A DNA stretch of 32,000 nucleotides from positions 2,190,001 through 2,222,000 of the forward strand of contig NC_007969.1 of assembly GCF_000013905.1 (NCBI RefSeq), written 5' to 3'. Of the stretch, positions 7,673-31,219 are shown piece after piece. How positions within the stretch are numbered: the stretch's first letter is position 1; each line of letters begins with the position of its first letter. The notes beneath the pieces were generated by a model. The model ran no database searches. It was given only the letters and a program-made list of their open reading frames with translations, and had not been told where the DNA came from. This DNA comes from Psychrobacter cryohalolentis K5. GTDB taxonomy: Bacteria > Pseudomonadota > Gammaproteobacteria > Pseudomonadales > Moraxellaceae. Made by a program: the position numbers and the translations under genes.

Positions 7673-7751
7673 AACGGTATCCTTATATCTTAGGCCTTGA
7701 TAAGACCAGTATGTGTATGTGTGCTTTAAAACCCTCTTCACCGTACCAAAA

Positions 7752-10196
7752 TTACAGCTTCAAACGGCGCAACCGCAGCGCGTTACCAATAACAGATACT
7801 GACGAGAGACTCATAGCCGCCGCCGCTATCATTGGACTGAGTAAAATCCCGAAGAACGGATACAGCACACCTGCCGCAATTGGTACACCAAGGGCGTTGT
7901 ATATAAATGCAAAGAACAGGTTTTGTCTGATATTGCGCATCGTAGAATGGCTCAGTTTATGGGCTCTTACAATCCCCATCAGGTCACCCTTCACTAGCGT
8001 AATGCCAGCACTCTCCATGGCCACATCTGTTCCTGTGCCCATAGCGATGCCGACATCTGCTTGGGCAAGAGCGGGAGCATCGTTAATACCGTCACCCGCC
8101 ATAGCCACAACCTTGCCACTACTTTGCAACTCTTTGATGATACGGTTTTTGTCTTCTGGAGAGACGTCAGCATGTACCTCATCAATCTTTAACTTACTAG
8201 CAACCGCTCTAGCCGTTATCTCATTATCACCTGTCAGCATGACTACCCGCAGTCCAGCTTTGTGTAATAGCGATATTGCCTCACTGGTACTCGGCTTGAT
8301 CGGATCAGCGACCGATATGAGACCAGCAGCTTGCCCATCTACTGCGACAAACATAACAGTTTCACCGTCCTTCCTGCGTTTGTCGGCGCGTTCTAAAAGC
8401 GTACTATCAAAACTATTGAGGCGTTGCATGAATTTTGAGTTGCCTACGGCGACTTGCTTGCCATTGACCAGCGCCTGCGCGCCTTCACCGGTAGTTGAAC
8501 TAAAATCGCTTGCCTTAACCATATCGAGAGATTTTGCCTTTGCTGCATTGACAATAGCTTCTGCCAGAGGATGTTCGCTGGCAGTCTCTACCGCTGCGAC
8601 AAGTATAAGCATCTCATCCTCGTCTAAGCCGCCAAGCGCTTCGATAGCGGTAAGCTCTGGTTTGCCTGCTGTCAGCGTTCCGGTTTTATCGACAACGATG
8701 GTGTCGACTTTTTCCATACTTTCTAACGCTTCAGCATTCTTGATAAGCACGCCATTTTGTGCTCCTTTACCAGTACCCACCATAATCGACATCGGTGTGG
8801 CGAGCCCTAACGCACAAGGGCAGGCAATGATTAATACAGCGATAGCATTGACCAGCGCAAAAGCCATTGCAGGCGTAGGCCCAAATATCGCCCAGACAAT
8901 AAAGGTAATGACAGAGCAAATAAGTACGATGGGCACGAACCATCCAGCTACCTTATCAACCAGTTTCTGTATTGGCGCGCGACTGCGCTGGGCTTCAGCA
9001 ACCATCTTGACGATCTTGGACAATACGGTATCATCACCAACGTTAACTGCTTTGATCAGTAGTGTCCCAGTACCGTTGACTGTGCCGCCGGTGACCGTAT
9101 CCCCTTGTGCCTTTAACACTGGGATGGGTTCACCAGTCACCATCGATTCATCAATGCTACTACTACCATCAAGTACCGTGCCGTCTACAGGAAGCTTTTC
9201 TCCTGGCTTGACTCGCAATCTGTCGCCGCTGATCACTTCGTCAAGTGATACTTCGGTCTCGACATCGTTCTCATCCACACGTCTTGCCGTTGGTGGTGCC
9301 AGCTCTAGTAACGCACGGATTGCTCCTGAGGTCTGACTTCTGGCTTTGAGCTCTAACACTTGACCCAATAGCACTAAGGTCACAATGACCGCTGCCGCTT
9401 CGTAGTACACCCCTACTTGGCCAGTGGCGTCCCTGAAGCTGTCTGGAAAAACATCCGGAAGGAAGGTTGCTACCAGACTGAAACCAAAGGCTGCACCTAC
9501 ACCAACTGCAATCAAAGTGAACATGTTCAGGTTTCGGCTTTTTATTGATTGCCAGCCACGGACGAAGAATGGTGCGCCTCCCCATAACACCACTGGTGTT
9601 GCAAGCGCTAGCTGAATCCACTGAGCGATCTGTCCAGAGATATCACCTTGTCCAAGGTTGTCTAAGCTTAGACCTACCATGTCACTCATAGCATACAGAA
9701 ATAGCGGTATGGTAAGCACCGTACAAATCCAGAAACGGCGTGTCATATCGTCGAGCTCTGAGGTGTCCTCCTCACCAATAGTAGCCATCTCTGGTTCAAG
9801 CGTCATGCCGCATATCGGACAGCCGCTATTCTTCACATCTCTGACTTCTGAATGCATCGGACAAATATAGACTGTACCGCTATAATCAGCTGGCACTTTG
9901 TCGTATTTGCCGCCTTTGACAGATTTTACCTTAGTACGGTCAGTATCTTTGCCATGACAATGTGAATGACTGTCTTCATCTGTAACCTCGTCTTCAGGTT
10001 TGAGGAACATACCACATATTGGGCAGTCGCTTTTTTCAACATCTCTCACTTCGGGATGCATCGGACAGGTATAAACGGCGCCATTATAATCAGCTGGCAC
10101 TTGGTTATACTCTTTGAAGGTAGTATGGGCTTGGTTAGTATTGTTTGACTCTAAACCACTATGGCCATTCTTTTTATCGCTATTATTAGGATTCAT
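7752..10196 (-). CDS. copA: Cu(I)-translocating P1B-1-type ATPase
   Basis: 814 aa with TGE, CPC ([13 protein letters not shown]), DKTGTLT, SEHPLA and GDGINDAP. Cu(I) selectivity residues YN(x4)P (FIYNALGVP) and MSLSS. Two N-terminal CPMHxEV...CPICGM heads. GAAGGAG RBS. Confidence 0.95.
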
Positions 10197-10855: not shown

Positions 10856-11605
10856 TTATCCTTGAGGGCTCTGCATCATCTGGCGACAGTAAGTGGCTAA
10901 ATTTTCTGGTAAATCCTCTGGGCAGACGCCACACTGCTGGTTGCCAGGGACAGCATAATCAATGAATTTCGGATATGATAGATTTAGGTTGCTCATGATG
11001 ACCTTGAATTCTTCGAGTGTTATGTCCCCGCCAAGCCGTGGATTGCGCTTTTTTTCCTGCGCGATTGAAGAAACAAAGCGCTCCTTGTAGTCGTGCGCAG
11101 GATAGACCAGCGTGTCGTCTGGTAAAGAAAAAAGTTTCTGCCGCACAGATTTATACAGCGCATCGGCATCGCCATTCTGGAAGTCGGTCCGGCCACATCC
11201 ATCGATAAGTAAAGCATCGCCAGTGAATACCCGCTCATTAAAGAGATACGCAAAATGACCATCGGTGTGTCCCGGCGTATGCAATGGGTGCAGGGTAATA
11301 CCAGCAACCTGCAAAGGTGTTCCTTCTTCCAGCCCGACATCCACACATGGTAGACGGTCAAAGGCAGGCGCTGCGATCTTGCTACCGACGGCACGCTTCA
11401 TCTCTAGTGCTGCAGTAATGTGATCTGCGTGGATATGCGTGTCAACTGTGTAGACCAAATCCAGTCCCAATCTATGGATTTCAGCCAAGTCACGATCCAT
11501 AGTCGCTATGACCGGATCAATCAGGATAGCTTGACCTGTATCCTCATCCCCTAACAGATAGGTATAAGTGCTCGAAAGGGGTTCGTACAATTGACGAAAT
11601 ATCAT
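10856..11605 (-). CDS. MBL-fold persulfide dioxygenase (ETHE1-like) / hydroxyacylglutathione hydrolase-type enzyme
   Basis: Start re-set to MIFRQLYEP (AAGGAA RBS). HIHADH metal motif, TPGHTDGH, and GDALLIDGCGRTDFQNGDA, which is typical of ETHE1-type sulfur dioxygenases. Cys-containing C-terminal tail (QQCGVCP...YC). Confidence 0.8.
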   Translation of the reverse strand: MIFRQLYEPLSSTYTYLLGDEDTGQAILIDPVIATMDRDLAEIHRLGLDLVYTVDTHIHADHITAALEMKRAVGSKIAAPAFDRLPCVDVGLEEGTPLQVAGITLHPLHTPGHTDGHFAYLFNERVFTGDALLIDGCGRTDFQNGDADALYKSVRQKLFSLPDDTLVYPAHDYKERFVSSIAQEKKRNPRLGGDITLEEFKVIMSNLNLSYPKFIDYAVPGNQQCGVCPEDLPENLATYCRQMMQSPQG

Positions 11606-12066
11606 GATTATTCCTTGTCTAAGGTAAGGGGTGATGCCCAACACACTGGTTATTGCACCTATTTTTTATATATTATGTTCTAATATAGTGTATTCATAAA
11701 GCATTACTCTGTATGGTTTTTATGTGACATTAGCAGACCAAAGCTGTTGGACTCGTGGGTCTTCGATATTTGCTCTTGAGCTGGTCAATACGGCAAGCGA
11801 GTGATGCGGTATCATCAATGAATTGCTGTATCAAATAACCATAGTGTTAAGATTGGTTTTTAGGTTATTACACGCCCTTTCATAATCTTCTCTCTTTATA
11901 TAACCTTCCGTAATACTAAACATCATATCTTCAGTCTCAAATATAATTCTTTTAGCTTCGTCTAGAAATAATGACCATGACATCGACAGCACGGTTCATT
12001 ATCATTGAGCTGACTGATTAAACTCTCCCAAGTTAGTGGCTAAAGATTTGATATCATAAAATAAAA

Positions 12067-12711
12067 TTATTCACTCGGATCAGAACCCGGTGGAAATTCA
12101 TGACGGAGCTGAGCAACGTTGGCAGCAGTGACTGTATCGGTAAATTTATTAAGGTCACTATGCACATATTGAGTGACCGCTGCTATTTGTTCATCATTCA
12201 TCATACTTTGAAAGGATGGCATACCGCGTAAGCCATTCATCACAACACTAATGATATAGTACTTTGATTGCATCTTACTGTTATCAGCAAGCGGAGGATA
12301 GTAACCTGCCCCCTTTGCGCCCTTACCATCTTGCATATGACAGCCAGCGCAGGAATCATCATACAGCTTTTTACCATTGGTAGTAATAAACCCCTTTTTA
12401 CCTTCAGAGCTACCTTCGAACTTTGCTAACCACTTTTGCAAGCTAGCATCTTCTACCATTTTCGGTAGTGAGCTGACATCGACGATATTGGCTGTTGGCG
12501 ATCTAAGCGCTTCTCTAGTCATATACACTGCACCCCATGCACCATTATTGCGACTGGCTTGATTATCAAAGACCATTTGCGTGGTTTGTTGCTGGCTGGC
12601 GAAAGTGACAGCGTTGGCTTTAGTGGATTGGCTACAGCCTGATAGCGCGACTGTGCTTCCGATACCTAATATCATTACCACAGCAAGCAGGTTTGGTTTG
12701 ATCATGTCCAT
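12067..12711 (-). CDS. Mono-haem c-type cytochrome, lipoprotein-anchored
   Basis: Start re-set to MDMIKPN (GAGGT RBS), because the longer track ORF overlaps the upstream gene. Lipobox LSG-C. Haem site CAGCH with a distal GMPSF Met ligand region. Confidence 0.8.
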   Translation of the reverse strand: MDMIKPNLLAVVMILGIGSTVALSGCSQSTKANAVTFASQQQTTQMVFDNQASRNNGAWGAVYMTREALRSPTANIVDVSSLPKMVEDASLQKWLAKFEGSSEGKKGFITTNGKKLYDDSCAGCHMQDGKGAKGAGYYPPLADNSKMQSKYYIISVVMNGLRGMPSFQSMMNDEQIAAVTQYVHSDLNKFTDTVTAANVAQLRHEFPPGSDPSE

Positions 12712-12760
12712 GATTACCTCTGAATTTATTATGATTAATTTACTGTAATAATCACTTCTA

Positions 12761-14374
12761 CTAACCAAGTTTTTTTGCCTTTTGATGTAGTCGCTGAGCG
12801 GCATCCATGCCAGATAAAATTGCCCCTTCTTGCCATGCTGGGATATGCGAGCAGTGCTCACCTGCTAGTATGATACGGTGGTCAATCGCGCATAGCGTAT
12901 CGTAGTACTGATCACGGCTTGACTCGCTCCAAATGCCATAGCAACCGAGCGACCATGGAATACGGTGCCAAGCGACGGATGTTCCAGAGCGGAACTCTTT
13001 GGTGTATTGCGGATGAATATACTTACCATACTGTAGTGCCACATCAATACGCTCTTTTGGATTCAGCGTATTAAATCGATAAGAGGCTTCTCCAAATCCA
13101 TACGCGCCGAGTAGCACCCCTGAACCTGTGGTAAACATATCGTGTGAAGGATAGGATATCTGTGAGATGGGCATATCGGTATAGGTGATACCGCCGTAAA
13201 TCCATTCGTCTTCTTCCCAAAATCGGCGTTTGAATTCCAAACCTACTTTATAAGAGGTGTCATAATGTACCGCTGCCATCGCTTGCTTCATCGGCGCTGA
13301 GACGTTAATGTCAATTTGGGTCAATACTGATAGTGGAATGTTGCAGATACACCAGTCAGCACGCACGGTTTTAGTTTCGCCATCTAGATTGTTACTAATG
13401 CTATTACTATCGACATAATCGACAGTGACGCCAGTCTCATCTTGATGAATCTTAGTGACCTTAGCATTAAACGTAATCATGTCTCGACATTCGCGAGTGA
13501 ATGCATCACCGATTTTTCCCATACCACCGACAGGCTGAAACATCGCTGGTTGATGGTCATATGTCGTATAGTTGCTATAAATATCTGACCACATCCCTGA
13601 ATTTAAGAGCTTGTCCATCGGTATCGGTGTTGAGGGTTTGGCATCAGGCATGAGCCCGCCACCTGGATAAACACTGTACCCACGATGCTTGCTGGTTTCA
13701 TGGCTCTTGACATAGCGATAATTGTTATCAAGGACGCCCCAACCTTTTAATCCTTCTAATAACTTCTCTTTATCCTCTTTATTAACTGTCTTATCAAGGC
13801 TACCAGTATTGACTGCTTTGGATAATAGCTCTGAGACATAGCCACGTATGTCACTTTGTACTTCACCCAATCGCTGCGGTGCACCATTAAAATGAGTGGT
13901 ACGGTGCAAATAGGCGCGGTCATTGGTTTGGATAAAAGGCTGCAGTGCCACACCGAATTTTTTACAATAATGGAATACCGCATAATGATGAACGGGCAAT
14001 CGCCATGGTCCACCATTAAAGTAATTGCCTTTTTTAAAGTCACAAGTCACCTCGCCGCCACCAAGCTCGGTATATTTATCACCTGCGTTTAGTGTCCAAC
14101 TGCGACCACCACCGCGATTTTGAAACTCAAGAACAGTGACTTTATAGCCGGCTTTACGTAGCTCATAAGCAGCGGTGAGTCCGCCCAATCCTGCGCCAAG
14201 GATCACAATGCTAGCGCCAGCAGGCGCACCCTTCAAATTCATCTCTTGTTTAAAGCTAGATTCAGAAGCAAATCCTAACGTAGTCATCGCCTGATACATT
14301 GCTGTCGCCCCTGCGGTCTTACCGATCATTGATAGCAGTTGCCGGCGTGTGGGCGATTGAAGCACATCATTCAT
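12761..14374 (-). CDS. Flavin amine oxidase-family (MAO/LAAO-like) flavoprotein with a twin-arginine export signal
   Basis: 537 aa. Tat signal SPTRRQLLSMIGKTAGATAMYQAMTTLGFA. FAD fold IVILGAGLGGLTAAYELRKAGYKVTVLEFQNRGGGR. C-terminal ILAGEH flavin-binding segment. Confidence 0.9.
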   Translation of the reverse strand: MNDVLQSPTRRQLLSMIGKTAGATAMYQAMTTLGFASESSFKQEMNLKGAPAGASIVILGAGLGGLTAAYELRKAGYKVTVLEFQNRGGGRSWTLNAGDKYTELGGGEVTCDFKKGNYFNGGPWRLPVHHYAVFHYCKKFGVALQPFIQTNDRAYLHRTTHFNGAPQRLGEVQSDIRGYVSELLSKAVNTGSLDKTVNKEDKEKLLEGLKGWGVLDNNYRYVKSHETSKHRGYSVYPGGGLMPDAKPSTPIPMDKLLNSGMWSDIYSNYTTYDHQPAMFQPVGGMGKIGDAFTRECRDMITFNAKVTKIHQDETGVTVDYVDSNSISNNLDGETKTVRADWCICNIPLSVLTQIDINVSAPMKQAMAAVHYDTSYKVGLEFKRRFWEEDEWIYGGITYTDMPISQISYPSHDMFTTGSGVLLGAYGFGEASYRFNTLNPKERIDVALQYGKYIHPQYTKEFRSGTSVAWHRIPWSLGCYGIWSESSRDQYYDTLCAIDHRIILAGEHCSHIPAWQEGAILSGMDAAQRLHQKAKKLG

Positions 14375-14463
14375 TTTATTATCCTTATTATTGAACCGTC
14401 ATCCATATCATCAGGTTGCATTAGGTATTTTTATAGCTGTATCGATAATGGGATTAATAGCAC

Positions 14464-15819
14464 TTACTTTAAGATGCGTTTGACGTCAGCAGCACTGACA
14501 TCACTACTTTGTAGACCACCGAAAGTTACCCGCACGTAATTGGTAATACTGGCAATCTGCGCATGACTTAACTCTTTAGAGAAGCCTGGCATTTTGGGTG
14601 CGGTGTTTAGTGCGCCTTTCGCGCCATAAGCAATGACATTGATGAGCGCATCTGGCTTAATGCGACGAATACTACTCAGTCCTACGATAGAGGCGTAACG
14701 AGCATCAGGCTGCGCGTAACCATCTACTCCGTGACAGCTAGCACAAGCAGCAAGATATAGCGCTTTTGGTGAGTTATTAGTATTAGAACCAGCATTAGTA
14801 GTGGATTTTTCCTGCGCCAGATAGTCTTTTTGCTCAATTAAATCATAGGTAATAGAGCGACTAACCGGACTGGGTAGCCGTGACGTGTCCACGGGTATCA
14901 CGTAATCGTCTGTCTTAATGATAGGGACGACTTTTAGATAAGCCGCCATTGCAATTAAGTCGCTATCGCTTAGATAGCGGGTACTATGGTCGACCGCTTC
15001 AGCCATAGGTCCACCGGCATAAGCGCGTTTATCGAGCATGCCAGTACGTAGATAAGTGACGATATCATTCTCGCTCCAACGCCCGATACCACTGTCATTA
15101 TCTGGGGTAATGTTAGGTGCATACCATTTACCAAGCGGCGCACCAGATAAATATTTTTTCTTATCAAGACCTTGCGTAAGGTTGCGTGGGGTATGACAAG
15201 TGCCGCAATGCTCTAAATTATTAACGAGGTATTCACCGCGTTGCTGGGTTTGGGTGAGCCCTGCACGATTTTCTGTAGAAGGCACGTTAATCACATTCCA
15301 AGCCAACATTAATGTTCGGATATTTAACGGGAATGGTAGCTTAGTGGTATTTTCAGGTGGCTCCTCTACTGGAGGTACGGTTTGAAAGTAAGCAAATAGT
15401 GCACTGATATCCATATCAGCCATACCATGATAAGACGGATATGGCATCGCAGGATAAAGCTGCTGCGTAGGCGCACGACCTTTTTTCAAGGCATTTTTGA
15501 AATCAGTCTCAGTATAGTTGCCGATACCATAACGTGTGGAGGGCGTGATATTGGTCGAGTAAATATTACCAATAGGGGTTTCAATCGCGACGCCGCCGCT
15601 ATAGTCCTCGCGATGACACGCCATGCAATCAGCAGTACGGGCAATGTAGGCACCGCGATTAACCAAATCACTATTGGCAGGACTGACATTGGGTAAGCTG
15701 ATAGCGGGACTGATATTGAATAGGCTCGTCGTATTAGATAAGCCTGCACTATCAGCCATGACAGCGCTGGAAGCCATACTAAGTGCAAGTGCTGATAACA
15801 GCATATAACTTGGTTTCAT
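14464..15819 (-). CDS. Tri-haem cytochrome c (dehydrogenase cytochrome-subunit type)
   Basis: Start re-set to MKPSYML (GAGGAT RBS) with a signal peptide. Three CxxCH sites (CMACH, CGTCH, CASCH) spaced as in the cytochrome subunits of membrane-bound alcohol/gluconate dehydrogenases. Confidence 0.9.
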   Translation of the reverse strand: MKPSYMLLSALALSMASSAVMADSAGLSNTTSLFNISPAISLPNVSPANSDLVNRGAYIARTADCMACHREDYSGGVAIETPIGNIYSTNITPSTRYGIGNYTETDFKNALKKGRAPTQQLYPAMPYPSYHGMADMDISALFAYFQTVPPVEEPPENTTKLPFPLNIRTLMLAWNVINVPSTENRAGLTQTQQRGEYLVNNLEHCGTCHTPRNLTQGLDKKKYLSGAPLGKWYAPNITPDNDSGIGRWSENDIVTYLRTGMLDKRAYAGGPMAEAVDHSTRYLSDSDLIAMAAYLKVVPIIKTDDYVIPVDTSRLPSPVSRSITYDLIEQKDYLAQEKSTTNAGSNTNNSPKALYLAACASCHGVDGYAQPDARYASIVGLSSIRRIKPDALINVIAYGAKGALNTAPKMPGFSKELSHAQIASITNYVRVTFGGLQSSDVSAADVKRILK

Positions 15820-15908
15820 ACTATCCTCACTAGGCTGGCAAAAACTCATTTTTAATTATTTTAGCCATGAATTTATTACACGTTTATTATTTATCGACGC
15901 TAAAAAGA

Positions 15909-16523
15909 TTATTGTTTAGCTGCTTCAACTTTTATATTTAAAGTCAGATTTTTAGTCATACCGAACAAGACATATTTTTTGATATTCCACTGAGTACGGT
16001 CAATAGTGGCGGTAAAATTGCCTCCGCAGATATTCTTCTTAGCTAGAGCGGTCAGATAGCAACTAAATTTGGTCGCCAATAAGCTAATAGGATGGGTCTG
16101 ACCGTTTAAGGTTAGCTTGCCATCCACTTGTGTGACCTTTGGGTTTTCTTCGTCAGAGGTGAAATGCCATTTGGTAGATTCAAAATGAGCCAATGGAAAC
16201 TGTTCCATATTAAAAAAATCAGAGCCCATCAGTTTGAGAGTGAAGCTTTTATTGCCTGTGTTTAAGGATTTTATGGGGATAATGAGAGAGATGTCGCCAG
16301 TTTTTGCGCTCGGATCATACTGGAGTATTCCCGTCACATTATAGAAGCCGCCAGTGGTGGCAGAGGTTTTGAGGTGGTCAATAGCGAAACGTACGTTAGA
16401 GGTGTCAGGCTCAATTTTATAGGTGGCGGCAAAGCTACTAACCGTACAACCTACCAGCAATAATAACGTCCCTAATGGCTTGTAGTAATGCAATAGTACT
16501 TTGTCAAATACAAGCTGGCTCAT
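15909..16523 (-). CDS. YceI-family (polyisoprenoid-binding) periplasmic protein
   Basis: 204 aa with a signal peptide. YceI-like core YKIEPDTSNVRFAIDHLKTSATTGGF...SLNTGN...DFFN. AAGGAA RBS. Confidence 0.85.
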   Translation of the reverse strand: MSQLVFDKVLLHYYKPLGTLLLLVGCTVSSFAATYKIEPDTSNVRFAIDHLKTSATTGGFYNVTGILQYDPSAKTGDISLIIPIKSLNTGNKSFTLKLMGSDFFNMEQFPLAHFESTKWHFTSDEENPKVTQVDGKLTLNGQTHPISLLATKFSCYLTALAKKNICGGNFTATIDRTQWNIKKYVLFGMTKNLTLNIKVEAAKQ

Positions 16524-16772
16524 GACAACATTCCTTTGTTGTGTGATCTTACTTATGACACGATTTCTAAGCGTTTACTAGCATTGTTTTATTTGGAGGA
16601 GTTTTTAAGATTAGTGCTGTGTTTGTTATTGAACTGTCTTACTATATTGATCGAAAACTATCAGAATATGATAACCAAGCGGCTAAATGAATTGTAGCAA
16701 AGGGTTGGACTCATAATTCCCAACCATAATCACTAAGAATACCTTTCAATCAATCACCTTTTTACCAACCAG

Positions 16773-17969
16773 TTATACCACAACCGGCTTGCTGCTTTTT
16801 TTAGTCAATATATAGTGAGCAATCATACCGATACAGATGCCCCAAAACACTGAACTTAATCCCAAAAACTGCATGCCAGATGCCGTGGCTAAAAAAGTAA
16901 TCAGTGCCGATTCTCTTTGACTATCATCTTTCATGGCAACAGTAATATTGGCTGAGATAGCACCTATTAGCGCCAGACCAGCTAGAGCGGCGATCAGCTC
17001 TTGAGGTAATAAGCTAAATACCAGCACAATGCTACTAGCAAACAATCCCCCCAATAAGTAAAAAATACCATTAGCGACACCGGCGATATAACGCTTTTCT
17101 TTGAGCTCGTGCGCATCTTTTCCCGTACATAAGGCGGCGGTAATTGCTGCTAACGTAATAGTGATACCTCCTACGCAAGCAACCGCTAGTGAGGCAATGC
17201 TAGTGGCCATGACAATAGGTTTCGCCGGCGTGTCATAACCACTTAAATTCAAGATAGCCATGCCAGGTAAAAACTGTCCGCTTAAGCTCACGAGAATAAG
17301 AGGGACTGCAAGGTTAAACGTTGAATGCCAGGACCATTCTGGCCAGATGAGGACGGGCATGGTCATCGTGAAATTGATATCGACAGGGTTCATCTTGCCA
17401 AGTAGCAAACTTAAGGTGACGCCACATAATAATACCCAAATCATTGTATAGCGCGGTGACAAGCGTTTGGCCAATAAATAACATCCCAACATACTAAAAA
17501 TGATAAATGGCATGGTGTCAGTGGCGACAAATAACCCTAAGCCAAATTGAAATAGGATACCTGCCATCATACCGGCGGCGATACTGTTAGGAATCCACTG
17601 TAAAACCTTATCAAAATAGCCAGTCGCACCGACCATAAAAATGACAATGGCTGAGATAATGTAAGCCGCAACGGCCTCATTAATACTCATCTGTGGAAAT
17701 AATGTCACGAGCAGCACGGTTCCTGGAGCAGACCAAGCAGTCACTATCGGCGCTTTATATTTGATAGAAAGATAAATACCAGGTATCGCAGTGCCTATCG
17801 ATATACCCCAAATCCAAGACGCCATCATGGCCTCTGACACTTGTGCTGCTTGTGCCGCTTGAAAGAAAATAACCAGTGGCCCGGCATAAGCAATGAGTAC
17901 CGCTAAAAAGCCAGCAACAGACGCTGAAAGTGACCAGTCTTGTTTTAAATCTTGTATTACAGTTACCAT
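16773..17969 (-). CDS. benE: BenE-family benzoate/H+ symporter-like transporter
   Basis: 398 aa, about 12 TM segments. The N-terminal region ...SASVAGFLAVLIAYAGPLVIFFQAA... and the overall layout match the BenE/YdcO family. Confidence 0.8.
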   Translation of the reverse strand: MVTVIQDLKQDWSLSASVAGFLAVLIAYAGPLVIFFQAAQAAQVSEAMMASWIWGISIGTAIPGIYLSIKYKAPIVTAWSAPGTVLLVTLFPQMSINEAVAAYIISAIVIFMVGATGYFDKVLQWIPNSIAAGMMAGILFQFGLGLFVATDTMPFIIFSMLGCYLLAKRLSPRYTMIWVLLCGVTLSLLLGKMNPVDINFTMTMPVLIWPEWSWHSTFNLAVPLILVSLSGQFLPGMAILNLSGYDTPAKPIVMATSIASLAVACVGGITITLAAITAALCTGKDAHELKEKRYIAGVANGIFYLLGGLFASSIVLVFSLLPQELIAALAGLALIGAISANITVAMKDDSQRESALITFLATASGMQFLGLSSVFWGICIGMIAHYILTKKSSKPVVV

Positions 17970-26819: not shown

Positions 26820-28259
26820 TTAAAAAATCATATGCGCACATAATGCAATAATTGGTAATGAAATAATGGTTCTTAATAGAAAAATTATTAATAACTGAAA
26901 AAAGCTTACTGGAATTTTGGTTCCTAAAATCAACCCACCTACTTCCGACATATAGATCAATTGAGAAACTGACAAACAAGCGATGACAAATCGAGTTAAC
27001 TCTGATTCTATTGAAGAACCGATAATAGCAGGCAAAAACATATCTGCAAAACCCACCATAATGGTTTTTGACATTTCTGCTGCAAAAGGTATATTCATTA
27101 ATTCTAAGAATGGAATAAACGGCATACCTAAATAATCAAATACAGGTGTTTCTTCTGCAACGATTAAACCCATCGTCCCGATTGCCATAACAACAGGCAA
27201 TATTCCGATCCACATATCCAAAATATTTTTTAATCCATCATTTAAGAAAGTAAAAAAGCTTGGACTCTTTTCTGCTTTGTGAACGGCTTTATGTAAACTA
27301 TGGGTAAATAACGTTTTTCCTTCAGGAATGGTTTCATGATCTCTATCACTATTTTCTACTACATACGTATTGTCAATTCTAGATAAAGGCAATAACCTTG
27401 GTACTATTAAAGCACAAACAATCCCGCATAAAGCAACCACCCCAATCATATTGAGGAAGTAGCTTTCTAGCTTAACCTGAGAGATGACGACCAAACAGAA
27501 TGTAATCGAAACTGCTGAAAAACTGGTAGCAATAACAGCTGCTTCTTTTTTAGTATAAAACCCACCTTCCAATTGTTTATCAGTTAATAATACGCCAATA
27601 GTGCCATCACCCAACCATGATGTTAGACAATCTACAGAGGACCTACCGGGCAAACCAAATAGAGGTCTCATTACTTTACTTAATAAAACACCAAAAAATT
27701 CCAATAAGCCAAAATCAAGCAATAACGGTAGCAGTAATCCAGCCAAAAAAAACACAATAAAAAGTATTGGCATTAATTCATATAATATTAAACCCCCGAT
27801 ATTATCTGAATATATAAATTCATAACCATACTTAAAATAGGTAACGACAGCAAAAAACGCACCAAGCATTCTAATAATAAGCCAAGGTGTAGTGACGTTC
27901 AGTAAGTTGTTTAAAAATGCATTATTTAAAATCAATGAAGGCTTCATGATTTTAGTATATAAAGTACAACACAATGTAATCATAATTGAGATTACGACAA
28001 ACAGTGGCAAAAGGCTGCCCATATAACCTTGTATATAATCCTTTAACACAGAGATAGGAATGGTAAATCCTTCTGCATATGATACAAACTTACCATCTAC
28101 ATAGGGAATTGGAAATACGAAAAGCAACAAACCTATTATAGAGGGTATAAAGAATTTTAAAAATTGTCTGATACTGATACTGCTGACAGCTTGACTTGAA
28201 GCATTGACTTTAATAATGTCCATATTATTTTTACTCGCAGTCCATTTTTTAACTAGCAT
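26820..28259 (-). CDS. YjiH-like / nucleoside-recognition (Gate) domain membrane transporter
   Basis: 479 aa, at least 10 TM segments. The N-terminal FLKFFIPSIIGLLLFVFPIP and the overall layout resemble YjiH-family permeases often linked to amino-acid catabolism. No SD upstream of either candidate ATG. Confidence 0.7.
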   Translation of the reverse strand: MLVKKWTASKNNMDIIKVNASSQAVSSISIRQFLKFFIPSIIGLLLFVFPIPYVDGKFVSYAEGFTIPISVLKDYIQGYMGSLLPLFVVISIMITLCCTLYTKIMKPSLILNNAFLNNLLNVTTPWLIIRMLGAFFAVVTYFKYGYEFIYSDNIGGLILYELMPILFIVFFLAGLLLPLLLDFGLLEFFGVLLSKVMRPLFGLPGRSSVDCLTSWLGDGTIGVLLTDKQLEGGFYTKKEAAVIATSFSAVSITFCLVVISQVKLESYFLNMIGVVALCGIVCALIVPRLLPLSRIDNTYVVENSDRDHETIPEGKTLFTHSLHKAVHKAEKSPSFFTFLNDGLKNILDMWIGILPVVMAIGTMGLIVAEETPVFDYLGMPFIPFLELMNIPFAAEMSKTIMVGFADMFLPAIIGSSIESELTRFVIACLSVSQLIYMSEVGGLILGTKIPVSFFQLLIIFLLRTIISLPIIALCAHMIF

Positions 28260-28309: not shown

Positions 28310-29269
28310 CTAATAGTTATTTAAAAGAGACTGTGTCACTTTTTCTAAAATCTTAAATATTCTGGTAGAGTCATCTTTTGAATTATTATATAAAGGATTG
28401 ATTTCTGCCATCTCCCAACAGCATACTTTCTTATTCTTGATTAACTCTATGTTAAGTTGCATTGCCTGTTCATACGACAGACCATTCATTGCAGGCGTAC
28501 CGGTTCCTGGCACATATAAAGGATCAACACTATCAACATCAAATGAGACATAGATATGATCACAATATTCCAATTTTTTGAAGATTTCCTCTACTGTGGA
28601 ACTGATTCCTTTCTGAGTTATCTCAGCAACGCTATATAAAGGAATTTTATGCCTTCTAATTAAATCCATTTCTTCTTCTTGATAATCTCTAACGGCACAA
28701 AAGACCACATTTTCTGGCTTGATTGATGGTTCGCTTGATGCCATAAATTTTAATTTTTCCCAATACTCTGTTTCTTTTTCAGAGAGTTCGTTACGCTGAC
28801 ATTCCAAATTATCGATCGCACAAGCCATCGCCAAAGGCATGCCATGCATGTTCCCTGATCCACTGGTGTATGGTGAATGAAAGTCAGCATGTGCGTCTAT
28901 ATAGACCACACCAATTTCAGCATCAGGATGCGCCATTTTTAGGCCATGCATTGTTCCTGCGCAGCTAGAATGATCTCCAGCTAAGACAATTGGGAATTTA
29001 TTCTCATTTCTTATATCTTTTATTTTATGTGCTAATTTAGAGATAATCGGTTCAATCACATCAGCATATTTTGCATGCGCAAATTGTGATTCTCCTTCGT
29101 TATTACTATCATCCTCAATACTGTCGAATTGCAATTTTTCAAAATAATCTGCATTAAGCTCTTTCGATGATGCTTTTAATGCATCAATGCCTAGAGAGGC
29201 GCCTTTTTTATATCCTGCGATATCTGAATAAACTTCTACTATTCTTATATTTTTCATCATATCAGTCAT
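28310..29269 (-). CDS. Arginase/ureohydrolase-family enzyme (arginase most likely given the neighbours)
   Basis: Mn-binding motifs in order: LAGDHS, IDAHADFH, SFDVDSVDP. Also GLSYEQ and EMAEINP. Confidence 0.85.
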   Translation of the reverse strand: MTDMMKNIRIVEVYSDIAGYKKGASLGIDALKASSKELNADYFEKLQFDSIEDDSNNEGESQFAHAKYADVIEPIISKLAHKIKDIRNENKFPIVLAGDHSSCAGTMHGLKMAHPDAEIGVVYIDAHADFHSPYTSGSGNMHGMPLAMACAIDNLECQRNELSEKETEYWEKLKFMASSEPSIKPENVVFCAVRDYQEEEMDLIRRHKIPLYSVAEITQKGISSTVEEIFKKLEYCDHIYVSFDVDSVDPLYVPGTGTPAMNGLSYEQAMQLNIELIKNKKVCCWEMAEINPLYNNSKDDSTRIFKILEKVTQSLLNNY

Positions 29270-29518
29270 GATTTTGTCTCTATTAAATAAAATAATTTTT
29301 ACAGCAGTTAAATTAAATTCGTTTTTATATATTAAAGCTCTTGAAAATTAGTAGATATATTTAAAAAAATAAACATATCCATAACTGCTCAAGAGCCTTG
29401 ATAAACATAGATAAACTTTTAAAAAACGATGTTAGTTTTAAACGCTACACAAAATGAGAAGTGCTTATCATTTTTTTGTATTAATTACTGTTGCATCAAT
29501 AACTATTGTATTAATCAC

Positions 29519-30619
29519 TTACGACATAGCCACAGATTCAGCTTCATTCGTCACTAGGCTATGATCTTTGCTATGGCCTTTCACTACCGAATATAAGTTT
29601 TTAGGGTCAGCTTGCTGAGGGATCAGATCTAAAATCTCATACCCTCCCTGCTCTCTGATCAAGTCGCGTAAAAATACCAACGCCGTAAAGTCTTCTGATG
29701 CAAAACCAACACCATCAAATACGATTAGATCATCCGCTGACGTTCGAGCTTGCACTTCACCTTTGAGGATGCGATGAAATTCAGTAACAGGAAAGTCGCT
29801 TGATAGATTTTGGATCTCTCCCTCAATGCGTGTCTGAGGCTCAAACTCCACAATCACATGATCTGCTCGCATTAATATATTGCTATCCAGCTCTGTCTTA
29901 CCAGGACAATCACCGCCTATCGCATTGATATAAACACCTTTTGTGATTATATCGTCTCGTAAAATAGTAGCATTGGTTTTATCAGCGGTACAGGTAGTAA
30001 TGATCTCTGCACCTAAAACAGCTTCTTCTAACGTGCGACAAACAATGACTTTCAAACCTGAGTCTGAAAGGTTGTCAGCCGTTTTCTGCGATGCTGCTGG
30101 ATCAACATCATACAAACGAACTTCTGAGATACCCATGATGGCTTTCATACCCAATGCTTGAAATTCAGACTGAGCGCCGTTTCCTATTAACGCCAGTTTT
30201 GTAACGTCTTTTGGCGCACAATGTTTGGCCAACATAGCTGATGTGGCAGCCGTACGTAATGCCGTCAGGATACACATCTCTGTCAGCAAAATAGGATAGC
30301 CAGTTTCGACGTCAGACAAGATACCCATCGCCGCCACGGTCTGCAAGTTTCGTTTGGTATTGATTGGATGACCATTGACATATTTGCAGGCAAACATCTC
30401 TCCATCGCTGACTGGCATCAACTCGATGACACCGTTTTTTGAATGCGAAGCAAAGCGAGAAGATTTTTCAAATTGATCCCAACGAAGATAATCTTGCTCT
30501 AAAGCATCCACTAGATCTGTAATACATTGCTCAACGCCATAATCATGAATCATTTTAGCCATCGCTTGTACACTAACGAATGGCACGCCTTCCTTGGGTG
30601 ATACGATAAATTTAGACAT
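29519..30619 (-). CDS. ocd: Ornithine cyclodeaminase / mu-crystallin family enzyme
   Basis: 366 aa. YVNGHP, LTALRTAATSA and the Rossmann segment LIGNGAQSEFQ are typical of ornithine cyclodeaminases. Confidence 0.85.
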   Translation of the reverse strand: MSKFIVSPKEGVPFVSVQAMAKMIHDYGVEQCITDLVDALEQDYLRWDQFEKSSRFASHSKNGVIELMPVSDGEMFACKYVNGHPINTKRNLQTVAAMGILSDVETGYPILLTEMCILTALRTAATSAMLAKHCAPKDVTKLALIGNGAQSEFQALGMKAIMGISEVRLYDVDPAASQKTADNLSDSGLKVIVCRTLEEAVLGAEIITTCTADKTNATILRDDIITKGVYINAIGGDCPGKTELDSNILMRADHVIVEFEPQTRIEGEIQNLSSDFPVTEFHRILKGEVQARTSADDLIVFDGVGFASEDFTALVFLRDLIREQGGYEILDLIPQQADPKNLYSVVKGHSKDHSLVTNEAESVAMS

Positions 30620-30787
30620 TAATGCTGTTCCTTTTCATGAATATTGTTTGTTGAACCAACAATTAATATGCTACCAATTATAATTGTCAGTTAAAATGTC
30701 AATAAGTTATTAAATATGGACGTATTTTTGACATATTGTTAAGTACTACTTAGCATAATGTCAAAATTCAATGAAGGAAGCATTTTT

Positions 30788-31219
30788 ATGGCGTATTACA
30801 CTTATGACTCTTTAGATAGCGAACTGATATCTGAGCTGCGACAAGATGGTCGAGCAACCATCTCAAACCTTGCTAAAAAACTCAAAGTTTCTCGTGCCAC
30901 TGTCCAAAACAGATTGGATAGACTGATTCATAACGGCGCTATTTTAGGATTCACGATTCGAGTGCATGAAGCACTAGATAAAGAAACCGTCAAAGCGATG
31001 ATGATGATTGAAGTGACAGGAAAGTCTACGTCACAAGTGATTAGGAAACTGCGGGGTATCCCGCAACTGATTAAGCTACATACAACCAATGGGGCGTGGG
31101 ACTTGGTCGCAGAGATACACACTACAAGCTTGAGAGAATTTGATGAAGTGCTGCGTCAAGTAAGAGAAATTGACGGCATTCTGAATAGCGAAACCAGTGT
31201 TCTGCTTTCGAGTTTGTAA
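30788..31219 (+). CDS. Lrp/AsnC-family transcriptional regulator
   Basis: Start re-set to MAYYTYDSLDSELISELRQDGRATISNLAKKLKVSRATVQNRLDRL (HTH, GAAGGAAG RBS) plus a C-terminal RAM/ACT-like domain. Divergent from ocd. Confidence 0.85.
   Translation: MAYYTYDSLDSELISELRQDGRATISNLAKKLKVSRATVQNRLDRLIHNGAILGFTIRVHEALDKETVKAMMMIEVTGKSTSQVIRKLRGIPQLIKLHTTNGAWDLVAEIHTTSLREFDEVLRQVREIDGILNSETSVLLSSL

Follow-up and report, generated by a model that had tools for sequence, protein, structure and literature searches.

A flavin enzyme that is exported to the periplasm and encoded between two c-type cytochromes raises the question of where its electrons go, and from which substrate they come. Such an enzyme is encoded in a 32,000-nucleotide stretch of Psychrobacter cryohalolentis K5 (NCBI RefSeq assembly GCF_000013905.1, contig NC_007969.1, positions 2,190,001 to 2,222,000 of the forward strand; hereafter the window). 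There, four consecutive minus-strand open reading frames (ORFs) at window positions 12067-16523 form a discrete unit of ~4.5 kb. In 5' to 3' order on that strand they encode a YceI-like lipocalin, a trihaem cytochrome c, a flavoprotein with a twin-arginine translocation (Tat) signal and a lipoprotein monohaem cytochrome c. An earlier sequence-only reading had recognised these four closely spaced genes, all of which are present, and had proposed an amine dehydrogenase of the MAO/LAAO family that feeds the respiratory chain, with the trihaem cytochrome and YceI as an extension to the quinone pool. Comparison across genomes leads to a modified answer. Judged from its homologies and gene neighbourhood, the cassette is fairly probably a periplasmic, cytochrome-c-linked L-amino-acid dehydrogenase. 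The proposal that haem c rather than O2 would accept its electrons, and so feed respiration, is strongly supported by comparative genomics and literature precedent.

An exported flavoprotein in the L-amino-acid oxidase branch

The affiliation of the flavoprotein bears directly on its likely substrate. Its closest solved relative, by a wide margin in a PDB search, is the L-amino-acid oxidase (LAAO) of Rhodococcus opacus (2jae, E 4.1e-85, flavoprotein residues 53-533), and the next-best matches are snake-venom LAAOs (~1e-43). MAO-B, putrescine oxidase and LSD1 align with it only in the N-terminal dinucleotide fold, and its 60 best PDB matches do not include NicA2. By these matches the flavoprotein belongs to the bacterial LAAO branch of the flavin amine oxidoreductase superfamily and is not MAO- or NicA2-like.

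A scan of one genome per GTDB species returned at least 594 loci with relatives of the flavoprotein. The best 80 of these (16 from Psychrobacter and 64 from other genera) were analysed for synteny, while conservation of the active site and the Tat signal was scored over 81 relatives. The nearest genome loci share 96-97% flavoprotein identity with the window. The dinucleotide-fold residues G60, G62, G65 and E83 (GxGxxG...E) and K376 are invariant in 81/81 relatives, and K376 lines up with the 'GTK' Lys of snake-venom LAAOs. R125 (in 'GPWRLP') and Y425 (in 'GAYGFG') are equally invariant (81/81 each). The former aligns with 'GATRIP' and 'GPMRLP' of LAAOs and the latter with 'VAYYSS' and 'AYGIG'. 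We take this pair to be a substrate-carboxylate clamp, in line with the roles of Arg90 and Tyr372 in the Calloselasma rhodostoma enzyme and their equivalents in R. opacus. Since this presumed carboxylate-binding pair is invariant in all 81 relatives, an alpha-amino acid is the likely substrate, and the enzyme is probably an amino-acid dehydrogenase rather than the amine dehydrogenase proposed earlier.

Export through the Tat pathway is likewise proposed from the N-terminus, MNDVLQSPTRRQLLSMIGKTAGATAMYQAMTTLGFA, which is a canonical twin-arginine signal. The motif TRRQLL, already noted in the sequence-only reading, is followed by a hydrophobic stretch that ends in G-F-A. The twin arginine is found in 80/81 relatives and the following x-L-L in 78/81.

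A monohaem cytochrome c gene accompanies the flavoprotein gene

The most constant feature of these loci is the gene that follows. The 80 loci span Alpha-, Beta- and Gammaproteobacteria and one Campylobacteraceae metagenome-assembled genome (MAG), and in 79 of them the gene directly 3' of the flavoprotein gene encodes, on the same strand, a monohaem cytochrome c. The 80th locus seemed to lack it, but there (L056:8569-9022) a signal peptide lies in one frame and a haem domain in another. This frameshifted copy is probably a MAG assembly error or a pseudogene. With a cytochrome c gene 3' of the flavoprotein gene in 80/80 loci, the arrangement is far beyond chance.

In the window, the ORF of the monohaem cytochrome reaches into the flavoprotein gene, as it opens at an upstream GTG. 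A GAGG precedes the ATG at 12711 by 7 nt, and this ATG, which gives 214 aa, is almost certainly the true start. The predicted protein has a single CXXCH and an L-S-G-C lipobox, in line with the earlier description as a lipobox-anchored monohaem cytochrome. The lipobox and a linker of ~100 aa are found in 16/16 Psychrobacter loci, while nearly all other loci have a plain Sec signal. Its best solved matches are the third haem domain of glucose dehydrogenase (GDH) beta and that of FdhC, the cytochrome subunit of fructose dehydrogenase (FDH). This likeness to the third domain of FdhC/GDH-beta-type subunits hints that the free monohaem cytochrome (12067-12711) and the trihaem cytochrome (region 14464-14800) have a common ancestry.

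Further genes near the pair vary. A Rid-family gene (PF01042) with its own signal peptide comes next in ~28-30 of the 64 non-Psychrobacter loci (~45%), while no Rid gene was found in the window or at any locus of the trihaem clade described below. Other neighbours encode TonB-dependent receptors (12 loci), M20 peptidases (11) and S33 aminopeptidases (4). Together, the RidA, M20, TonB and S33 neighbours suggest that amino acids and peptides are metabolised in the periplasm and that a 2-imino acid is produced, and the secreted RidA imine deaminases of sister loci agree with an amino-acid substrate. In four loci from Steroidobacteraceae or Gammaproteobacteria, a di-haem cytochrome c peroxidase gene (PF03150) lies near the pair (L044:4858-6327, L046:9885-10964, L052:9933-10916 and L053:9753-10955). 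These peroxidases may safeguard against H2O2 leakage, with the same cytochrome c as donor.

A trihaem cytochrome c confined to one clade

In PDB comparisons, the trihaem protein of the window matches the FDH cytochrome subunit (7w2j_C, E 2.5e-83) from end to end. The alignments with subunit II of alcohol dehydrogenase (ADH; 8gy2_B, 1.2e-74) and the beta subunit of flavin adenine dinucleotide (FAD)-dependent glucose dehydrogenase (8hdd_B, 4e-72) likewise take in all three haem domains. The protein is thus a homologue of the electron-exit subunits FdhC, AdhB and GDH beta of membrane-bound dehydrogenases, the type named in the earlier reading. A GAGG ribosome-binding site precedes the second ATG of the ORF, at 15819, and the gene probably starts there, giving a protein of 451 aa.

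Counting only matches above 300 bits, a trihaem gene lies 5' of the flavoprotein gene in 20 of the 80 loci; the remaining 60 have the monohaem cytochrome alone. The 20 comprise all 16 Psychrobacter loci together with those of Azoarcus, Loktanella, Roseinatronobacter and one Rhodobacteraceae MAG, and their flavoproteins form a single clade in a neighbour-joining tree. Weaker trihaem marks lower in this tree were dismissed as artefacts of weak cross-hits. Three further members of the clade were retrieved independently, and all three encode a cytochrome of 473-492 aa, the flavoprotein and a cytochrome of 167-185 aa. In these alphaproteobacterial loci the trihaem gene ends with a 4-nt overlap onto the flavoprotein start, and the flanking sequence is wholly unrelated. 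All members of this flavoprotein clade that were examined, from three proteobacterial classes, thus have the trihaem cytochrome, and it is confined to them. No other dehydrogenase gene was found as a conserved neighbour of the trihaem modules.

P. urativorans (CP012678, L085:2887-10741) carries a tandem pair of complete trihaem-flavoprotein-monohaem modules. For flavoprotein, trihaem and monohaem cytochrome, respectively, identity to the window is 93/84/78% in module B and 76/68/51% in module A. These parallel falls in identity indicate that the three genes diverge together, which fits the partner specificity reported for pairs of flavin amine oxidase (FAO) and adjacent cytochrome c (CytC) (PMC12224317).

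The trihaem cytochrome occurs in two forms. Sixteen proteins (from nine Psychrobacter loci and all non-Psychrobacter examples) continue for 133-141 aa after the third haem motif and have a C-terminal hydrophobic helix with an Arg-rich tail. The window protein ends 92 aa after this motif, and it and its counterparts in the seven nearest genome loci, which range from 92 to 95 aa, are without such a helix. Nowhere in the trihaem ORF of the window does a hydrophobic stretch reach the cut-off, so the predicted protein is without a C-terminal anchor. FdhC, AdhB and GDH beta run 45-60 residues beyond the end of the alignment, where sister modules keep their transmembrane (TM) anchor. On the evidence of these C-termini, the trihaem cytochrome is tail-anchored in most lineages and anchorless in that of the window.

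The tandem modules of P. urativorans offer some side observations. The trihaem cytochrome is tail-anchored in the first module and anchorless in the second. The modules are paralogues (their flavoproteins are 76% identical), which suggests different substrates, and they are followed on the opposite strand by PD40/Tricorn-like, TonB, ExbD and ExbB genes. Between a flavodoxin-like gene and the anchored module lies ~1 kb of non-coding DNA with 31% GC (L085:1858-2887), which is unusually long and may be regulatory. A comparably sized gap separates a flavodoxin-like gene from the module at the related locus L015.

A YceI paralogue dedicated to the module

The first gene of the cassette encodes a protein of the YceI family, as had been recognised earlier. 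Its best solved match is BcnA of Burkholderia (5ixg, E 5.5e-17), followed by polyisoprenoid-binding proteins. The signal peptide has a conserved S-x-A-A cleavage region, and C155 and C166 are invariant. A lipoprotein reading of the sequence 'LLVGC' was considered and rejected, as the Cys is not conserved in 6/8 orthologues; YceI is accordingly a soluble periplasmic protein.

A metagenome scan with YceI yielded 52 loci. In the resulting tree, all 25 module-linked YceI proteins form one clade without any stand-alone member, and 18 stand-alone proteins from metagenome loci (41-68% identity) fall outside it. The YceI of the cassette is, by this phylogeny, a module-dedicated paralogue that has stayed linked to the module across 58-99% identity even as the surrounding genes changed. 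This linkage is restricted to one Psychrobacter sub-lineage. The loci with an anchorless trihaem cytochrome are those with YceI upstream, bar one, and P. arcticus 273-4 shows the same pairing. The exception is module B of P. urativorans L085, which is anchorless and without YceI but adjoins an anchored module. Upstream of anchored modules, no pseudogene remnants of YceI were found, the region being ~1 kb of non-coding DNA with 31% GC.

The synteny that the sequence-only reading presupposed thus stands for the flavoprotein-monohaem pair, whereas the trihaem gene is shared by a quarter of the loci and YceI by one sub-lineage.

Proposed electron route and competing explanations

Starting from an exported LAAO-type flavoprotein genetically coupled to two cytochromes, we infer the following model. 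The flavoprotein would fold with FAD in the cytoplasm and leave via Tat. In the periplasm it would oxidise an alpha-amino acid to a 2-imino acid, which would then hydrolyse to a 2-oxo acid and ammonium. The reduced flavin would be reoxidised in one-electron steps by c-type haem and not by O2. The downstream monohaem cytochrome would be the universal acceptor; in Psychrobacter, a lipid anchor and a long linker would tether it. Within the trihaem clade, the likely path of the electrons would lead from FAD to monohaem c, then to trihaem c and finally to ubiquinone or a terminal oxidase, with ubiquinone as the candidate in anchored forms. This order is proposed by analogy with quinohaemoprotein ADH, in which a catalytic subunit with one haem c passes electrons to the trihaem subunit II and from there to ubiquinone.

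In the lineage of the window, the lipoprotein tether of the monohaem cytochrome and the YceI paralogue may, speculatively, offset the lost trihaem anchor, and YceI may help the soluble trihaem cytochrome to reach a lipophilic acceptor. Some functional role of YceI in the module is quite possible, although we would not count on it. It is highly doubtful that YceI stands in for the membrane anchor as a shuttle for isoprenoid quinone, or for some other lipophilic acceptor, between membrane and soluble trihaem cytochrome. The extension to the quinone pool that had been suggested earlier therefore survives in part: the trihaem cytochrome is co-inherited with the flavoprotein, within one clade, but with the anchorless protein of the window the link to quinone would be less direct than had been assumed.

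Several points weigh against this model. Among characterised enzymes the closest is R. opacus LAAO, a genuine oxidase that forms H2O2, and the roles given to Arg125 and Tyr425 come from alignment and from the structural literature on LAAOs. The placing of the monohaem before the trihaem cytochrome is an analogy, and the two could be parallel exits. Without its anchor, the trihaem cytochrome of the window would make quinone reduction less secure than in its anchored relatives. No RidA accompanies the trihaem clade. None of the 16 anchored modules has YceI, nor does the anchorless module B of L085, and the association of YceI with the cassette traces to one evolutionary event. Finally, oxidase or dehydrogenase character cannot be read from sequence (PMC12224317).

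One rival is an ordinary periplasmic LAAO that makes H2O2, with the cytochromes and YceI handling the consequences. These neighbours would feed peroxidases or quench H2O2 and lipid peroxyl radicals, much as in the envelope antioxidant system of BcnA (YceI) and cytochrome b561. That the closest solved homologue is a bona fide oxidase, that the Lys at flavin N5, which promotes O2 reactivity, is kept, and that di-haem peroxidase genes lie near the pair in four loci would all suit such an enzyme, as would the action of YceI/BcnA lipocalins with a cytochrome against lipid peroxidation (PMC9113575). However, something would still have to reduce the cytochrome c, and no redox enzyme other than the flavoprotein is linked to it throughout; the peroxidase occurs in only 4/80 loci. 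FAOs with an adjacent CytC proved to be dehydrogenases although they too retain the N5 Lys (PMC12224317), and the lao-dependent reaction of Gluconacetobacter diazotrophicus requires cytochrome c maturation (PMC5053998). We therefore regard an H2O2-forming enzyme as rather improbable. A second rival would make the flavoprotein and the monohaem cytochrome the whole system, feeding cytochrome c oxidase, while the trihaem cytochrome and YceI travel along as a separate electron-transfer or stress unit. The 60/80 loci with a monohaem cytochrome alone, the 18 metagenome loci in which YceI homologues stand alone and the gaps of 59-89 nt in the window, which leave room for internal promoters, would permit this. 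Yet one flavoprotein clade, which covers three proteobacterial classes, has the trihaem gene throughout and amid unrelated flanks, this gene overlaps the flavoprotein start by 4 nt in alphaproteobacterial loci, and all three proteins co-diverge in the tandem modules of P. urativorans. With no other dehydrogenase gene as a conserved neighbour, and with a cassette boundary that takes in YceI, such a two-gene system is distinctly improbable.

A question that is not exclusive of the dehydrogenase model concerns the substrate, which might be some other amine with a carboxylate, such as an opine or an N-methyl or non-protein amino acid, instead of a proteinogenic L-amino acid. The enzyme would then serve a specialised catabolic or signalling route, for instance to an auxin-like keto acid. 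Neighbouring genes vary widely, two paralogous modules in one genome suggest differing specificities, and lao of G. diazotrophicus is known only through a phenotype in the conversion of tryptophan to indole-3-acetic acid (IAA) (PMC5053998). Against this stand the invariant Arg/Tyr clamp and the nearby RidA, M20 peptidases, S33 aminopeptidases and PD40/Tricorn-like proteins, which point to peptide and amino-acid scavenging. R. opacus LAAO, moreover, is broad-spectrum for L-amino acids. A specialised substrate of this kind is unlikely, if worth keeping in mind.

Relation to known systems

Published work already covers both this gene family and the principle of a flavoprotein that works with cytochrome c, and NicA2-CycN, which had been cited as the one well-studied precedent, is not the only one. 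The closest is the lao-cccA-ridA cluster of G. diazotrophicus PAL5 (GDI2456-2454), for whose Tat-signal LAAO the enzyme of R. opacus served as modelling template (Rodrigues et al. 2016; PMC5053998). Tn5 insertions in lao abolish IAA synthesis that depends on the conversion of Trp to indolepyruvate, and cytochrome c maturation mutants from earlier work retain 5% of IAA synthesis; the authors proposed from genetics, and did not measure, that the cytochrome serves the LAAO (PMC5053998). The peptides YPSHGYF and QVIHPNY, which the lao primers of that study encode, correspond to YPSHDMF (408-414) and KYIHPQY (451-457) of the window flavoprotein, and these matches at equivalent positions place both proteins in the same family. 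In both, a Tat-signal flavoprotein of the R. opacus type is followed by a cytochrome c gene, and ~45% of the sampled non-Psychrobacter relatives share the three-gene layout with a secreted Rid protein. The window differs in having no ridA, in its upstream trihaem cytochrome and YceI, and in that its monohaem cytochrome is a lipoprotein. R. opacus LAAO itself aligns with the window flavoprotein over the full length, with FAD-binding and substrate-carboxylate residues conserved, but it is an O2-using oxidase of a Gram-positive bacterium. We know of no cytochrome partner for it.

A second group of precedents comprises NicA2 or Pnao with CycN and the FAO-CytC dehydrogenases. Many Tat-signal FAOs with an adjacent CytC have been kinetically verified as dehydrogenases, and the adjacent CytC is a stronger predictor of dehydrogenase character than the Tat signal (Akram et al. 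2025; PMC12224317). Both genomic features used in that study are found in the window, namely an N-terminal Tat signal and an adjacent same-strand cytochrome c gene (49-nt gap). As in these systems, a Tat-signal PF01593 flavoprotein and a Sec-exported monohaem cytochrome c share an operon, and the operating principle, from FADH2 to cytochrome c and the respiratory chain, would be the same. However, the window enzyme lies in another, LAAO-like branch of the superfamily, and those systems are without a trihaem partner. The FAO set was drawn from NicA2 BLAST hits; the paper makes no mention of LAAO, RidA or trihaem cytochromes, and its supplement names none of the genera found here (PMC12224317).

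The trihaem subunit itself is homologous, over three haem domains, to those of FdhSCL, the FAD-dependent glucose, gluconate and sorbitol dehydrogenases and ADH subunit II. Sister modules, though not the window, share with the complexes of FDH, GDH and gluconate dehydrogenase (GADH) a C-terminal TM anchor. The catalytic partner in the window is a PF01593 amine oxidoreductase, whereas in those complexes it is a GMC flavoprotein or a pyrroloquinoline quinone (PQQ) enzyme. The window also has an extra, free monohaem cytochrome and a trihaem cytochrome without anchor. Neither a GMC-family gene nor one for a small Tat-carrying 'hitch-hiker' subunit was found in the window cluster or at related loci, and the latter is explained by the flavoprotein bearing its own Tat signal.

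YceI/BcnA lipocalins, lastly, are linked to cytochrome b561 (YceJ/LcoA) and protect against lipid peroxidation (PMC9113575). The cassette shares with them the PF04264 fold and a genetic link to a cytochrome gene. However, no cytochrome b561 gene lies in the cassette: the neighbour of YceI is a periplasmic c-type trihaem cytochrome and not a membrane b561, and the linked YceI forms a separate paralogue clade.

Literature searches on LAAO with Tat and cytochrome c, on trihaem cytochromes with flavin amine oxidases, or on Psychrobacter amine oxidase with YceI, returned nothing beyond the two studies above (PMC5053998, PMC12224317), and in none of the papers found was a PF01593 enzyme described together with YceI or a trihaem subunit of the FdhC type. 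This trihaem partner appears to be undescribed, both with and without its anchor, and so do the lipoprotein cytochrome and the YceI paralogue dedicated to the module.

Implications

Proteins of this flavoprotein family occur across hundreds of proteobacterial species, and the analysis would carry over to the LAAO branch the recent finding that flavin amine oxidases, contrary to the earlier view, are not all oxidases. If the proposed model is correct, periplasmic deamination of amino acids would give respiratory energy without H2O2, which bears on nitrogen scavenging, on the ecology of cold-soil and marine Psychrobacter and on bacterial auxin synthesis. Fructose dehydrogenase owes its direct electron transfer to electrodes to a subunit of this FdhC-type trihaem kind. 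Mediator-free biosensors for amino acids could therefore profitably start from a natural enzyme that oxidises amino acids and has such a subunit.

Set side by side, the anchored modules and the anchorless modules with YceI also amount to a natural experiment on the ways in which a periplasmic dehydrogenase is joined to the membrane, and they give the poorly understood YceI family a concrete, testable partner. Were YceI to act as a carrier after all, the cassette would represent a previously unknown, carrier-mediated coupling of a periplasmic flavoenzyme to the quinone pool, and a natural L-amino-acid dehydrogenase with a direct-electron-transfer haem subunit.

Boundaries of the cassette and neighbouring genes

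The four genes (Table 1) are separated by gaps of 59-89 nt (yceI/trihaem), 89 nt (trihaem/flavoprotein) and 49 nt (flavoprotein/monohaem). By blastn, the closest Psychrobacter loci, L001 and L007, are homologous to window positions 12057/12068-16593 only, and the flanks are unrelated. The same four genes occur in P. arcticus 273-4, where they adjoin malonate decarboxylase genes, and the gene order of the window is reproduced at 99% by metagenome contigs L088-L090. The four-gene block is a discrete homology unit that occurs in different genomic contexts.

The conserved ~70 nt upstream of yceI form the 5' edge of the cassette and are probably its promoter or 5' untranslated region. A scan of 11500-17200 for consensus promoters and for terminators returned sites that were no commoner than in shuffled sequence, none of them usefully placed, and so gave no promoter signal above chance for this stretch.

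Table 1. Features of the cassette, with positions in the window
Feature	Position	Strand	Basis or remark
Conserved ~70 nt 5' of yceI	16524..16593	-	blastn homology with L001 and L007 ends at 16593
YceI-like periplasmic lipocalin, 204 aa, Sec signal	15909..16523	-	PF04264, E 1.9e-31
Trihaem cytochrome c, FdhC/AdhB/GDH-beta type, Sec signal	14464..15849	-	three CXXCH
Trihaem CXXCH motifs, ORF residues 75, 215, 369	15627-15613, 15207-15193, 14745-14731	-	sequence
Tat-signal flavin amine oxidoreductase, 537 aa	12761..14374	-	PF01593, E 6e-54, residues 63-529
Tat motif TRRQLL, residues 9-14	14350-14333	-	twin-arginine motif
Arg125	14002-14000	-	aligns with LAAO carboxylate-binding Arg
Lys376	13249-13247	-	aligns with Lys beside flavin N5
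Tyr425	13102-13100	-	aligns with LAAO carboxylate-binding Tyr
Monohaem cytochrome c lipoprotein, 214 aa	12067..12711 (ORF 12067-12861)	-	PF13442, 3.4e-14; PF00034
Lipobox L-S-G-C (VALSGC)	12645-12634	-	followed by ~95-aa low-complexity linker
CAGCH haem motif of monohaem cytochrome	12351-12337	-	one CXXCH

The absence of a regulator or transporter from within the cluster, as stated in the sequence-only reading, was confirmed. BenE, AcuI and IclR genes adjoin the cassette in the window and were considered as its transporter and regulator. They were rejected, as they flank the cassette only in the same-species contigs L088-L090 and are absent at L001, L007 and the P. arcticus locus. A mobile-element origin was likewise set aside: no transposase or integrase was found by Pfam in the other long ORFs of the window, plasmid and phage collections not having been searched.

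Other genes of the window lie further away. A metallo-beta-lactamase (MBL)-fold gene at 10856-11644, 420 nt 3' of the cassette, is related to hydroxyacylglutathione hydrolase and persulfide dioxygenase and is kept only in the same-species contigs L088 and L090. At 28310-31219, arginase and ornithine cyclodeaminase genes stand beside a divergent AsnC/Lrp regulator in what looks like an arginine-to-proline route, and a Gate-domain transporter is encoded at 26820-28259. The amino-acid catabolism genes at 28310-31219 are unlinked to the cassette in other genomes. A P-type ATPase ORF at 7752-10196, labelled CopA from sequence without a family search, has two N-terminal repeats of the metal-binding motif YxCPMHxEVRD...CPICGM; a 541-aa ORF on the plus strand (7711-9336), antisense within it, looks spurious. 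The P-type ATPase stretch has 49-50% GC compared with ~40% in the rest of the window and may be horizontally acquired.

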